A stretch of 64,000 bases of DNA from a virus (IMGVR_UViG_3300031088_000782:128001-192000), one strand, 5' to 3'; positions 17,968 through 25,461 are shown, counted from the stretch's first letter. The notes: generated by a model not told the origin, from the letters alone. Program-made: numbers and translations.

Positions 17968-18042
17968 CCAGATATAGGAAAGTTTGGTCATTCCGCCTAG
18001 TTAGGGGCTAGGAGATCGCAGGTTCGAATCCTGCTATCTGGA
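17968..18042 (+). tRNA. tRNA-Pro(AGG)
   Basis: CCAGATA/TATCTGG acceptor; CCTAG-TTAGGGG-CTAGG. Confidence 0.88.
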
Positions 18043-18179
18043 CAAATGTTATAGAAGTATCATAAGCCATGAGAAAATATAACATTGATAAAAGTTGAAC
18101 ACCCTCGTAAAAATGTTTGCGAATATATTCTAGGCTAGTTTATATTGGGCTGAACGCGCATTTTCTTTTATCGCCTTAA

Positions 18180-18252
18180 TCCTCTATGGTGGAATGGTTT
18201 AACACTCTTGGCTCTTAACCTTGAGATCTAGGTTCGAATCCTAGTGGGGGAA
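18180..18252 (+). tRNA. tRNA with CTT (Lys) anticodon on a Gln-like body
   Basis: Loop CTCTTAA; weak anticodon stem; D and T arms resemble tRNA-Gln at 19643. Confidence 0.65.
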
Positions 18253-18254
18253 CT

Positions 18255-18327
18255 GTGGTCGTAGCTCAATTGGTAGAGCGTCTGCTTGTGGCGCAGATGG
18301 TTGGGGGTTCAAGTCCCCTCGATCACC
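18255..18327 (+). tRNA. tRNA-His(GTG)
   Basis: TCTGC-TTGTGGC-GCAGA; C73. Confidence 0.88.
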
Positions 18328-18411
18328 CTATGGGACGGCAATCCCTAGTGTTTTATCATCGGGTCTGTTTTGCCGAACAGAATAAGATGTAGCCAACACT
18401 TTAAACATGGC

Positions 18412-18485
18412 TCCCTAATGGTCTAGTTTGGTTAGGGCACATCCGCGTGGAGGGTGGGGCGTAGGTTCAAATCCTACTTAGGGAA
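18412..18485 (+). tRNA. Atypical tRNA, GTG in a non-canonical loop
   Basis: TCCCTAA/TTAGGGA acceptor and T arm intact; loop GCGTGGA lacks U33. Confidence 0.55.
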
Positions 18486-18616
18486 CGGTTTCGAAAGGAA
18501 CTACTGAAATGCGCAATTTCGAGTGGATAGTATCATTGGGTGCTGTTTATCTTAAATAGTTAAGCTGACTATGCAGGTGAGACAGTATAAGATGTAGTTA
18601 CCACTATAAACAAAAC

Positions 18617-18689
18617 TCCCTGATAAGTCTCAAGAGGTAGAGCTGGCAATACGCGTCCGGTTGTGGGTTCAAGTCCCACTCATAGGGAA
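18617..18689 (+). pseudogene. tRNA-like element with bulged acceptor and no clear anticodon loop
   Basis: TCCCTGA...TCATAGGGA; T arm GTGGG-TTCAAGT-CCCAC. Confidence 0.5.
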
Positions 18690-18707
18690 CAATTCTGAAA
18701 AGAATAT

Positions 18708-18780
18708 AGGTGCGTAGCTCAATTGGTAGAGCAACGGTCTCCAAAACCGTAGGTTGCTGGTTCAAGTCCAGTCGCACCTG
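18708..18780 (+). tRNA. tRNA-Trp(CCA)
   Basis: AGGTGCG acceptor; loop CTCCAAA; G73. Confidence 0.92.
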
Positions 18781-18803
18781 CTTGATTACAAAAGTAATCA
18801 TAT

Positions 18804-18874
18804 GCGGATATGGTGTAGTGGTAGCACAAGAGCTTCCAACCCTCTTGGTCAGAGTTCGATTCTTTGTGTCCGTG
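18804..18874 (+). tRNA. tRNA of ambiguous identity (Gly-like body; loop register CCA or TCC)
   Basis: AGAGC-TTCCAAC-CCTCT with a C:C closing mismatch; G73. Confidence 0.65.
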
Positions 18875-18967
18875 CTGAATATGCAAAAATATTCATAAAT
18901 TTTTAACAAATATAACCTTTGGGAAGTAATTAAGGTTCGATTCTGTCTGTTGTATTTGTTAAATTAT

Positions 18968-19040
18968 GGGGGTATGGCGCAATTGGTAGCGCATCTGCTT
19001 TGCAAGCAGAGGGTTACGGGTTCGAGTCCCGTTATCTCCA
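18968..19040 (+). tRNA. tRNA-Ala(TGC)
   Basis: G3-U70; loop TTTGCAA. Confidence 0.92.
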
Positions 19041-19041
19041 C

Positions 19042-19116
19042 AGCTGGGTAGAGAAGTTCGGTTATCTCGTCAGGTTCATATCCTGAAGATCGTGGGTTCA
19101 AATCCCACCCTAGCCA
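19042..19116 (+). tRNA. tRNA-Met(CAT), initiator-like
   Basis: TCAGG-TTCATAT-CCTGA; A1:C72; abuts tRNA-Ala. Confidence 0.85.
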
Positions 19117-19214
19117 CAATCTAAATCACAGGATGATTTAGCGGATTCCAGGGGTAATTCGTTAGCGTTCCATTGAAAAATGGTAGACAAGATTCTAAAA
19201 AGCAGACCCAATAT

Positions 19215-19287
19215 GGCGGCAGTGGCAGACTGGTAATGCGCTTGACTGTGGCTCAAGTATATGCGGGTTCAATTCCCGTCTGTCGCC
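19215..19287 (+). tRNA. tRNA-His(GTG)
   Basis: G-1, C73; loop CTGTGGC. Confidence 0.9.
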
Positions 19288-19326
19288 CAAATTTTTATTA
19301 ATATTATAAAATATGTTAATAAATTT

Positions 19327-19400
19327 GGTCCTATAGCTCAGTTGGTTAGAGCATTACCTCGACACGGTAAAGGTCACTGGTTCGAATCCAGTTAGGATCA
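19327..19400 (+). tRNA. tRNA-Val(GAC)
   Basis: TTACC-TCGACAC-GGTAA (C33 is unusual). Confidence 0.85.
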
Positions 19401-19442
19401 CGTATTGTTTAAATATTAATTAATATTTTAAATAATATCTAT

Positions 19443-19532
19443 GGAAGTGTGGTCGAGTCTGGCTTATGGCACCTGTTTTGAACACAGACGTAGCGTAAAA
19501 AACTACCGGGGGTTCGAATCCCTCCACTTCCG
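19443..19532 (+). tRNA. tRNA-Ser(TGA)
   Basis: Long variable arm; loop TTTGAAC; G73. Confidence 0.88.
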
Positions 19533-19642
19533 CTTTATACAAATAATAATTGTATAATTTTCACAATTTATTTGACAAAATAATTGACTAATGCTATATT
19601 TAAGTTAATAAATAAATTTGGTAATTAAATAGTGGAAAATAT

Positions 19643-23499: not shown

Positions 23500-23553
23500 C
23501 GTTATAAAAATGATCAACAAGTTTTAAAAAATTTTTATAATAAATAATTTTAC

Positions 23554-23638
23554 GCGCATGTGATGAAATTGGTAAACATGACGGTCTAAGAAGCCGTTGC
23601 TCGTAAAGAGTTTGGAGGTTCAAGTCCTCTCATGCGCA
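23554..23638 (+). tRNA. tRNA-Leu(AAG)
   Basis: ACGGT-CTAAGAA-GCCGT; long variable arm; A73. Confidence 0.9.
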
Positions 23639-23682
23639 CAAAATATTCTTGAAATATTTCATTAATATTTTTAAAATTTTTA

Positions 23683-23832
23683 AACAATCAGTGGCGAAAT
23701 ATATTGGGATACGCGGCTGTTTAGTAGCCTAAGTTTTTATAAATATGGCGAAACACGGCTATACGGTGAAACTTGCTGGGAAACTTTCAAGTGGCACTTA
23801 TGTGTGTAGGTTCGAGTCCTACCTGATTGTTT
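23683..23832 (+). ncRNA. About 150-nt Leu-like composite tRNA with two D-arm-like segments
   Basis: AACAATCAG/CTGATTGTT acceptor; TGGCGAAA..TACG occurs twice; variable arm and T arm GTAGG/CCTAC intact. Confidence 0.55.
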
Positions 23833-24059
23833 AATTGTTCCACAATGAACTTGACAAATAGTTGAATATGTTATATAATTATTTGTATAAGTTTGAATAA
23901 AACTTTTGTTGTTTGAAATTTGAATAGTGAAAAGTTTAGCATACCGGAATGATTGGTCCTGATAAATATTGTTACATGTAGTTAGTTTGTATAATATTTA
24001 TGGAAAGTGTAACAAATCCGAAGGGTAGGTTGGGAAACCTTTATGCGCACATCCCATTA

Positions 24060-24132
24060 GGCTCTGTAGCTCAGTTGGGAGAGCATTCGATTGAAGATCG
24101 AAGGGTCAGCGGTTCAATCCCGCTCGGAGCCA
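24060..24132 (+). tRNA. tRNA-Phe(GAA)
   Basis: Loop TTGAAGA. Confidence 0.92.
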
Positions 24133-24168
24133 CTTATACGCCTTTATAAGCGTATAAACATAAGATAT

Positions 24169-24243
24169 GGACCTATGGAGCAGTCTGGAGTGCTCGTTGC
24201 CCTGTCACGGCAAAGGTCGCGGGTTCAAGTCCCGTTAGGTCCG
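24169..24243 (+). tRNA. tRNA-Asp(GTC)
   Basis: Loop CTGTCAC. Confidence 0.92.
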
Positions 24244-24298
24244 CTGTGTTTAGTAGTTCGAAACGCTGAATACAAATGTTGATATATCACATTTATGC

Positions 24299-24374
24299 GG
24301 CTGTATAGCATAGCCTGGTCTAATGCGCCTTGCTCATAACGAGGAGATCGTTGGTTCGAATCCAACTACAGCTA
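24299..24374 (+). tRNA. tRNA-Met(CAT)
   Basis: CCTTG-CTCATAA-CGAGG; elongator-like. Confidence 0.85.
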
Positions 24375-24432
24375 CAAAAAATATTTAAAAGTTTTGAATA
24401 TTTTTGATACAATAATTTTATTAATAAATTAT

Positions 24433-24503
24433 TGCCCCATAGTGTAATGGCAACACCACGGTTTTTGGTACCGTTATTCTAGGTTCGAGTCCTAGTGGGG
24501 CAG
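24433..24503 (+). tRNA. tRNA-Gln(TTG)
   Basis: Loop TTTTGGT. Confidence 0.9.
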
Positions 24504-24672
24504 CTTGTTGAAAACAAACATACTTGTCAGTTGAAACACTAACTACAGACTGACAACTTACACTGTGTGGTGACAGTTGGTAAGTTAATTCTATTTAATC
24601 GTAAATCGAAAATAGACGTTAATAGGAATGGGATGTTTCTATGCGATTGAGTGCGTTAAACTTAATCACATT

Positions 24673-24745
24673 GCCACCTTAGCTCATCTGGTAGAGCAGC
24701 TGTCTTGTAAACAGCAGGTGATCGGTTCGAGTCCGATAGGTGGCT
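24673..24745 (+). tRNA. tRNA-Thr(TGT)
   Basis: Loop CTTGTAA. Confidence 0.92.
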
Positions 24746-24871
24746 CTTAAATAGGTCAAATTGCCTTTTGGTAATGAGATTTTTTAAAATATTCTAAGTA
24801 AAGAAAATATTGATGAACTATTCTGAATTACGTAATAAGTTTAGTTCTGATATATGAGTATTTATATGAAT

Positions 24872-24937
24872 TCTGTTGTAGCATAAATACTAATGCGCTG
24901 TTGAAAGGGTATTCAAGTGAAAATCTTGACAACAGAT
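24872..24937 (+). pseudogene. 66-nt tRNA-like element with a collapsed anticodon arm
   Basis: TCTGTTG/CAACAGA acceptor, D arm GCAT/ATGC, T-like TCAAG/CTTGA. Confidence 0.5.
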
Positions 24938-24964
24938 GAAAAAAGGGTTTGCGAAAGCTTCTCC

Positions 24965-25038
24965 TACTGTGTAGTTTAATGGCAAAACACTAGGCTCTTA
25001 AAGCTTAGCATATAAGGTTCGAATCCTAATCACAGTTG
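24965..25038 (+). pseudogene. Degenerate tRNA-Lys(CTT)-like gene with a 9-nt anticodon loop
   Basis: CTAGG-CTCTTAAAG-CTTAG; mismatched T stem. Confidence 0.55.
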
Positions 25039-25045
25039 AAAATAT

Positions 25046-25117
25046 GCCTCTCTAGCTCAGAGGAAGAGCAACGGTCTTTTAAACCGTGGGTCGAGATTTC
25101 GAAATTCTCGGGAGGCA
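25046..25117 (+). tRNA. tRNA-Lys(TTT), copy 2
   Basis: Near-identical to 17404 with compensatory acceptor changes. Confidence 0.9.
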
Positions 25118-25287
25118 CTTTAATTCATAAATTTTTAGCTAATATTTGTGAATTTTGATGTAGATAGTTGATGACTATTGGCATGAGTGAAAAGGTTGTT
25201 CATTATGGAACATTTTGAACGCGGTTCGAGTCCGATTAAGCTCAACACCTAATAACTGGTCTGATTTAATCACGGATAATCTTGGAT

Positions 25288-25356
25288 TAAGCTAACTACA
25301 ATGGAAACATGAGAATGGTAGGATAGCGATGGTAGGTTCAATTCCTACTGGCTTAA
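25288..25356 (+). pseudogene. tRNA-like element with scrambled central arms
   Basis: TAAGCTA/TGGCTTA-A acceptor; GTAGG-TTCAATT-CCTAC. Confidence 0.45.
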
Positions 25357-25388
25357 TGATTAGATGAAAAACTATTTTCGCTTTTAAT

Positions 25389-25461
25389 GCCACCTTAGCT
25401 CAGTCGGCAGAGCAGCTGTTTAGTAATCAGCAGGTCATCAGTTCAATTCTGATAGGTGGCT
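25389..25461 (+). tRNA. tRNA-Thr(AGT)
   Basis: Thr body as at 24673; loop TTAGTAA. Confidence 0.88.

Follow-up and report, generated by a model that had tools for sequence, protein, structure and literature searches.

Three adenine-first tRNA genes in the array of a 309.5-kb viral element, best read as derivatives of U34-type tRNAs

Anticodons that begin with adenine (A34, adenine at position 34) are a type that bacteria almost never use. A stretch of viral DNA in IMG/VR (IMGVR_UViG_3300031088_000782:128001-192000) carries three such transfer RNA (tRNA) genes outside the arginine box, those for Pro(AGG), Leu(AAG) and Thr(AGT), and this raises the question of where they came from and how they would decode. 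The stretch analysed, called the window here, is 64,000 nt long and comprises bases 128001-192000 of a single contig of 309,534 bp with 35% guanine plus cytosine (GC), obtained from a phyllosphere metagenome. Positions are those of the window unless stated otherwise. An earlier reading made from the sequence alone had described the three genes as well formed, together with tRNA-Arg(ACG), and had noted that their G34 counterparts were missing.

ARAGORN and the Rfam tRNA model (RF00005, gathering threshold 29 bits) agreed on the A34 set, and the Rfam model confirmed ARAGORN's other tRNA genes as well. As expected of elongator tRNAs, all three non-Arg A34 tRNAs scored above threshold and had a full cloverleaf with U33 in an anticodon loop of 7 nt, and the four A34 genes of the sequence-only reading were all upheld, with full-length Rfam matches (table 1). 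The U31-U39 pair of Thr(AGT) was the sole non-standard pair among the Pro, Leu and Thr genes and is common to a whole family of viral Thr tRNAs. In E. coli the identity elements are G35, G36, G72 and A73 for Pro, the long variable arm and A73 for Leu, and G1-C72, C2-G71, G35 and U36 for Thr. By these rules, from which the host's may differ, each gene holds the identity elements of its named amino acid. The three genes thus appear to be working elongator tRNAs. A promoter scan gave no clear sign either way on their transcription.

Table 1. Positions in the window of the A34 tRNA genes, their U34 partners and other features of the element
Feature	Position	Strand	Support and details
tRNA-Pro(AGG)	17968..18042	+	59.1 bits, model 1-71 of 71; loop UUAGGGG; C1-G72 pair, A73
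tRNA-Leu(AAG), class II, long variable arm	23554..23638	+	55.8 bits, model 1-71 of 71; loop CUAAGAA
tRNA-Thr(AGT)	25389..25461	+	63.3 bits, model 1-71 of 71; loop UUAGUAA; U31-U39
tRNA-Arg(ACG)	20047..20119	+	48.7 bits, model 1-71 of 71; canonical TadA-type loop CUACGAA
tRNA-Pro(TGG), U34 partner of Pro(AGG)	22170..22243	+	ARAGORN and Rfam
tRNA-Leu(TAG), U34 partner of Leu(AAG)	30929..31010	+	ARAGORN and Rfam
tRNA-Thr(TGT) copy 1, nearest paralogue of Thr(AGT) and its U34 partner	24673..24745	+	ARAGORN and Rfam
tRNA-Thr(TGT) copy 2	31746..31818	+	ARAGORN and Rfam
tRNA-Arg(TCG), U34 partner of Arg(ACG)	43473..43546	+	ARAGORN and Rfam
Co-oriented tRNA array core	17134..32629	+	60 of the element's 66 tRNA genes, with homing-endonuclease genes between
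TilS-like PP-loop protein (lysidine synthetase N-domain)	32798..33766	+	PF01171 123 bits; TIGR02432 134.7 bits, cut-off 93.6
CCA-adding tRNA nucleotidyltransferase	40131..41567	+	PF01743, PF13735, PF12627; NF009814 146 bits, under its cut-off
dCMP deaminase (ComEB/DCTD-like)	47111..47599	+	PF00383 91 bits; the element's only zinc (CDA-fold) deaminase

When the whole contig was scanned with ARAGORN, 66 tRNA genes and one transfer-messenger RNA (tmRNA) gene were found, every one within the window and on the + strand. The six tRNA genes beyond the array core extend to 47763. The array is highly redundant, with seven CAT, five Lys and four Asn tRNA genes. Among all 66 tRNAs of the 309.5-kb element, the anticodons GGG and CGG for Pro, GAG and CAG for Leu, and GGT and CGT for Thr were all missing, so the reported lack of Pro(GGG), Leu(GAG) and Thr(GGT) extends beyond the window to the entire element. 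Elsewhere the element does use G34 tRNAs (Val GAC, Gly GCC and Ser GGA). The missing Pro(GGG) means little by itself, because none of the 46 Pro tRNAs of the background sample described below has that anticodon.

To trace the origin of the three genes, IMG/VR was scanned for the exact anticodon arm of each with position 34 left free (the Leu arm being 19 nt). The Leu arm was present in 17 viral contigs, 16 of which carried T at position 34 (Leu UAG) and one A. The Pro arm was present in two, both with T. For the Thr arm, again with 17 viral contigs, position 34 was T in 11, C in five and A in one. Pooling the three arms gave T in 29, C in five, A in two and G in none. The Thr and Leu arms with A34 were those of the AT-rich contigs L238 and L218, respectively. 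By comparison, the G34 genes of the element's relatives have anticodon arms quite unlike those of the A34 genes. Within the array, Thr(AGT) is 85-86% identical to both Thr(TGT) genes and shares an identical acceptor stem with them. One T-stem pair is changed on both sides (A-U against G-C), and this compensatory change indicates that the Thr fold was kept after the copies diverged.

The U34-type arms and the Thr(TGT) paralogy therefore point to T34-to-A34 shifts in spare copies of the array and not to replacement of G34 genes, which the sequence-only reading had implied. The A34 genes are best read as having arisen by a T34-to-A34 change of U34-type tRNAs, in an array rich in duplicates and homing-endonuclease genes; judged on their sequences, they do not look like the G34-gene replacements of eukaryotes or Leuconostocaceae. 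Metagenomes were also scanned for strain-level relatives. The Leu pattern gave no match, and the Thr pattern gave a single match, to an unrelated Thr(TGT) contig. One sequencing run with a related strain contains 36% of the 31-mers of the stretch.

How unusual such genes are was estimated from 1011 tRNAs in 92 other viral loci, a convenience sample fetched for other purposes that is neither random nor independent. Ten of these tRNAs (about 1%) were non-Arg A34 tRNAs, comprising three Leu AAG, two Thr AGT, two Ser ACT and one each of Pro AGG, Gly ACC and Phe AAA, and no background locus held more than one. At the background rate, the probability of finding at least three among 66 tRNAs is approximately 0.016-0.028, a value that is only rough because of the nature of the sample. 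Non-Arg A34 genes are thus rare yet recurrent on viral DNA, and three per array is unusual. A passage in PMC8007984, citing Morgado and Vicente 2019, states that phage-borne tRNAs lack ANN anticodons; with exceptions at about 1% of tRNAs in the sampled viral contigs, this holds only approximately. Median GC was 0.36 for loci with a non-Arg A34 tRNA and 0.40 for the others, a difference that was not significant without the two loci recruited by pattern, so a link between A34 and AT-richness was not established in this sample.

Well-formed non-Arg A34 tRNAs were seen in nine other contigs (L218:1015-1097, L247:4397-4483, L250:13078-13155, L238:4542-4615, L071:6078-6150, L242:1241-1312, L243:982-1057, L004:9759-9849 and L076:12326-12411). 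Between them these contigs hold Leu AAG three times, Thr AGT and Ser ACT twice each, and Gly ACC and Phe AAA once. In L071, the Thr AGT gene adjoins both Thr GGT and Thr TGT. The pair of Gly ACC and Thr TGT was seen again in the metagenome contig L253.

Codon usage was counted over 76,877 codons in 201 long open reading frames (ORFs). The sequence-only reading had noted a preference for CCT, CTT and ACT, and each was indeed the top codon of its box (53% of Pro, 63% of CTN and 43% of Thr codons). Because these codons are the commonest, the A34 tRNAs would pair with frequent codons by Watson-Crick rules. The preference is unspecific, however, since T/C ratios were no higher in boxes with an A34 tRNA (Pro 6.0, Leu 4.7, Thr 4.5, Arg 3.3) than in those served by G34 or U34 tRNAs (Ser 6.1, Ala 5.5, Val 4.6, Gly 2.4). 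NNU and NNA codons together account for 82% of Pro, 73% of CUN Leu and 85% of Thr codons.

A search with DnaE for relatives found only four viral records, of two lineages; the T/C comparison covers three genomes. Over the Pro, Leu and Thr boxes of the DnaE gene, T/C was 8.2 in this element, 2.0 in a 63%-identical relative (43% GC; Thr GGT, Leu GAG and several C34 tRNAs) and 6.4 in a 39%-identical relative (32% GC; a U34-only set plus Arg ACG). Across these three genomes, therefore, G34 tRNAs accompany frequent NNC codons, and where NNC is rare G34 is missing, or A34 is present as here. The record of the 63%-identical relative (G001), at 43% GC, has inverted terminal repeats; its tRNA genes include one whose anticodon is CTA (amber or Pyl-type) and one for Ile(TAT) (L120:578-650, L118:11725-11801). 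Two further proteins were tried as markers of kinship and rejected: the protein encoded at 26348, which has a widespread SegE-like endonuclease domain, and a flanking protein of 711 aa, which consists of repeats and also occurs in giant viruses that are not related. For the 26348 protein, the first 90 residues were matched in 176 viral contigs; of the 80 examined, many are tRNA arrays.

A deaminase of expanded specificity, which the sequence-only reading had raised as a means of editing the A34 tRNAs, was sought by searching the whole element with Pfam models for two deaminase families and by a six-frame scan for the HAE...PCxxC motif. The search for a TadA-like gene found only the dCMP deaminase, and the six-frame scan revealed no second HAE...PCxxC protein on the element. 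As a TadA candidate the dCMP deaminase was ruled out. It scored 29 bits with the TadA equivalog NF008113 against a cut-off of 150, and its best models were of the dCTP/dCMP deaminase and ComEB types. Its best solved relatives were dCMP deaminases from human, phage T4, a streptococcus and a cyanophage (2w4l, E 1.8e-44, residues 8-156), with no TadA among the solved relatives listed. The neighbouring genes belong to nucleotide metabolism and include a GMP reductase and a MazG-like protein. With no TadA on the element, any inosine must come from the host's TadA. The TilS-like protein is a putative element-encoded enzyme that modifies position 34; together with the CCA-adding enzyme, it indicates that the element brings some tRNA maturation of its own but no tRNA adenosine deaminase.

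The anticodon loops were then compared with the sequences that TadA is known to accept. TadA of the E. coli type needs YUACGAA, and that of S. pyogenes accepts YUAMGRA (PMC11472039). The strict motif was matched by Arg(ACG) only, and the Leu, Thr and Pro A34 loops failed it. The relaxed motif was matched by Leu(AAG), and not by Thr(AGT) or Pro(AGG). Since the Leu loop CUAAGAA differs from the Arg(ACG) loop at position 35 only, the host TadA may convert it. The Pro and Thr loops, UUAGGGG and UUAGUAA, match no known TadA motif, and these two tRNAs would for that reason stay unmodified. Published behaviour is consistent with these predictions. With an Arg2-type loop in E. coli, AGG and AGU anticodons were not deaminated, and AAG was deaminated to about 15%, which A37G abolished; CCU and CCC were read to about the same extent by AGG, and for AGU the preference for ACU was about 10 to 1 (PMC11066159). 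In O. oeni the Arg and Leu A34 tRNAs are modified and the Thr and Ser A34 tRNAs are not (PMC8072771), and M. capricolum has an unmodified Thr(AGU) alongside Thr(UGU) (PMC3711424).

Based on this evidence, the following course is proposed. In a large array prone to duplication, position 34 of a spare U34-type tRNA copy would have changed from T to A. The resulting A34 gene and its U34 partner would form a pair of Watson-Crick readers for the two dominant codons of the box, and the A34 genes would have been retained as NNU readers beside their partners. The U34 tRNAs would read NNA, plus more through wobble, so that the pairs would cover 73-85% of box codons by Watson-Crick pairing, and NNC and NNG, which are rare, would be read by wobble or by tRNAs of the host. 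Pro(AGG), if unmodified, would read CCU and CCC, and unmodified Thr(AGU) mainly ACU. Leu(AAG) may be partly or fully converted to inosine, depending on the host TadA. Expression, charging, modification state and benefit of the A34 tRNAs are all matters that we infer. Overall, change in spare copies followed by retention is given about an even chance of being correct. A more general form, in which giant AT-rich elements repeatedly shift spare U34 copies to unmodified A34 and so read NNU and NNA by A34 and U34 pairs without TadA, is considered somewhat unlikely. To our knowledge, that decoding regime is known so far only from Mollicutes and organelles; if the general form is true, it would exist here on a transmissible element and could pass between hosts.

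Several observations weigh against change followed by retention. The relatives that were found do not share the A34 state, and no close relative was recovered. The Pro arm contributes two matches only. The enrichment over the background of about 1% is modest (P about 0.02), with a sample that is neither independent nor random, and the T bias of the A34 boxes does not exceed that of the Val, Ser and Ala boxes. None of the sequencing runs listed as containing the stretch is on record as RNA. Finally, redundancy, with two Thr(TGT) copies and U34 tRNAs that read several codons, would let a neutral mutant persist.

The last point leads to the main rival explanation, neutral drift, according to which redundant copies recently gave rise to the A34 genes by single-base mutation, and these are tolerated, since U34 partners and host tRNAs would cover the boxes, but bring no benefit and are bound to revert or decay. 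The lack of conservation among relatives fits drift, as do the sporadic occurrence of non-Arg A34 tRNAs at about 1% in unrelated viral arrays and a codon signal that is not specific to the boxes concerned. The array is highly redundant and contains homing endonucleases that promote duplication. Three such genes in one array nevertheless exceed what the background predicts (P about 0.02), and Thr(AGT), despite about 10 differences from its paralogues, retains a 63-bit fold with a compensatory pair. All three genes fall in four-codon boxes, where A34 cannot cause missense, with the cognate codon the commonest of its box, and the same Thr and Leu arms are independently A34 in the AT-rich contigs L238 and L218. 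On balance drift is considered somewhat unlikely.

A second alternative is that the element mirrors an inosine-based set of its host. The host would be a low-GC Gram-positive bacterium with a widened TadA, as in Streptococcaceae or Leuconostoc-Oenococcus, and the element's A34 tRNAs, suited to that enzyme, would as I34 tRNAs read NNU, NNC and NNA. Leuconostocaceae have Leu(AAG) and Thr(AGT) instead of GNN tRNAs (PMC8007984), and the combination of Arg, Leu and Thr is identical. Bacterial Leu(AAG) genes are almost all in Bacilli, where CUU usage rises (PMC13249217), and CTT is the top Leu codon here. The Leu loop matches YUAMGRA (PMC11472039). The 35% GC, a type-2 GMP reductase and a CCA-adding enzyme that scores best with NF009814, and not with the actinobacterial model, are Firmicutes-like features, and the phyllosphere source also agrees. 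However, the tRNA bodies are viral and of U34 type, not copies of host A34 genes. The Thr and Pro loops lie outside the known TadA motifs, Thr(AGU) of O. oeni is itself unmodified (PMC8072771), and the Leuconostoc set has no Pro(AGG). DnaE and the nearest isolate-phage tRNAs point instead to Actinomycetota. This explanation is therefore regarded as improbable.

The signals of host identity are mixed. The nearest DnaE proteins were those of Streptomyces phages, actinobacterial plasmids and Actinomyces (33-40% identity). The nearest isolate-phage tRNAs came from actinophages: Pro(TGG) from phages of Streptomyces and Gordonia, and Leu(CAA) from one of Rhodococcus. None of them is A34. Actinomyces tRNAs were at most 92-93% identical, a likeness that is ordinary conservation. 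WhiB and Lsr2 were searched for on the element and were absent. The type-2 GMP reductase gene (44408-45382; NF003966 455 bits, above cut-off) had no full-length counterpart in 61 Actinomycetota genomes and one, at 54% identity, in 61 genomes of a phylum sample labelled Firmicutes. The type of this enzyme conflicts with the actinobacterial affinity of DnaE. The GC-rich host that the sequence-only reading had invoked to explain poor decoding of T-ending codons is a possibility and not a finding.

The A34 genes might also serve as decoys or as a means of escape from anticodon nucleases, in that A34 would remove the modified U34 recognised by some host nucleases or toxins, so that these copies would survive attack on the U34 tRNAs. 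Their derivation from U34-type tRNAs is compatible with such a role, as is the presence on the element of an RNA ligase (PF09414, 102.6 bits) and of a CCA-adding enzyme with repair-type relatives, the kind of toolkit that phages deploy against tRNA cleavage. Changing base 34 alters the codons read, though, so the copy cannot replace the NNA reader; RtcB was searched for and not found, and no nuclease is known to us that attacks the U34 tRNAs for Pro, Leu(CUN) or Thr by such recognition. This role is very unlikely. An error of assembly, base calling or anticodon assignment, conceivable for a record that is a metagenome assembly, is scarcely credible: the anticodon bases assigned by two independent programs agree, three errors that all struck position 34 exactly would be very improbable, 99% of the sampled 31-mers of 17100-26000 are present in a separate assembly, by Logan, of the probable source run, and the same A34 arms were found in other contigs.

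Several other features of the tRNA region were recorded. A C directly follows the discriminator base in 64 of the 66 tRNA genes (17134-47763), and the full CCA is encoded in none. Genes for HNH and SegE-type GIY-YIG endonucleases lie within the array at 22348-23421, 26348-27187, 33843-34370 and 35807-36382. A weak candidate ochre-suppressor tRNA with anticodon TTA (31 bits) is present at 24966-25037; if active, it would read through many stops, because TAA ends 92 of the 201 long ORFs. A tRNA-like gene at 29485-29554 (39.7 bits, model 3-68) was given a two-base 'tc' anticodon by ARAGORN, that is, a shortened anticodon loop. An ADP-ribosyltransferase gene (PF03496, 47 bits; 39218-40138) lies just upstream of the CCA-adding enzyme, in the outer tRNA region. 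A small signal recognition particle RNA gene (RF00169, 42.7 bits, gathering score 40; 50369-50461) is immediately upstream of the tmRNA gene (50464-50816), whose tag peptide is ANANKNAYALAA. The RNA ligase gene is at the extreme end of the record, at genome positions 309013-309465 and thus outside the window, with a weaker second match at genome positions 197074-197601.

Among the closest known systems is the Leuconostoc-Oenococcus group, whose A34 tRNAs are Arg(ACG), Leu(AAG) and Thr(AGU), plus Ser(AGA) in O. oeni (PMC8007984, PMC8072771). As in the element, the Arg, Leu and Thr boxes are involved, G34 is missing there and U34 partners are present. Only the Arg and Leu tRNAs of that group are inosine-modified, which is what the loops predict for the element. 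Judged by its tRNA set, the element shares the pattern of Leu(AAG) and Thr(AGT) without Leu(GAG) or Thr(GGT). Descent from the G34 isoacceptors, or likeness to them, as in Leuconostocaceae, was not seen: none of the same-arm viral contigs has G at position 34, where T, C or A stands. Whereas the Leuconostoc-Oenococcus genes are chromosomal, accompanied by the organism's own TadA and replacements of GNN tRNAs, those described here are on a mobile element without TadA, have viral arms of U34 type and include an extra Pro(AGG).

The streptococcal tRNA-Leu(AAG), which a TadA of widened range converts to IAG (PMC11472039, PMC13249217), resembles the element's gene in its AAG anticodon, in a loop that fits YUAMGRA and in the favoured CUU codon. 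The streptococcal Leu loop differs from the Arg loop of the same organism at positions 35 and 37 (PMC11472039), the element's at 35 only, with A37 kept. Mycoplasma capricolum (PMC3711424) provides a likeness for Thr, with an A34 and U34 pair, no G34 and A34 expected to be unmodified; its genome is reduced and its tRNA set minimal, in contrast to the redundant, mobile array of 66 genes. For Pro(AGG), the precedents are from the laboratory, namely a Salmonella proL mutant and an orthogonal M. jannaschii tRNA in E. coli (PMC11066159; PMC3711424). These share the AGG anticodon, escaped deamination by E. coli TadA and showed about equal reading of CCU and CCC; they are the best guide to the element's gene. 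They are engineered or selected mutants, whereas the gene found here is natural and has G37 and G38 in its loop.

The avoidance of wobble adenosine by bacteria is a long-standing puzzle, and few natural A34 tRNAs are known to be unmodified. Here three natural A34 genes, one of them for Pro(AGG), lie beside their probable U34 parents on an element with no tRNA adenosine deaminase of its own. The element may therefore serve as a compact test bed for A34 decoding, for the range of anticodon loops that TadA accepts and for how anticodon shifts arise in tRNA arrays. Compared with the systems above, its distinctive features are the involvement of three four-codon boxes at once, a mobile element without TadA and a traceable U34 origin.

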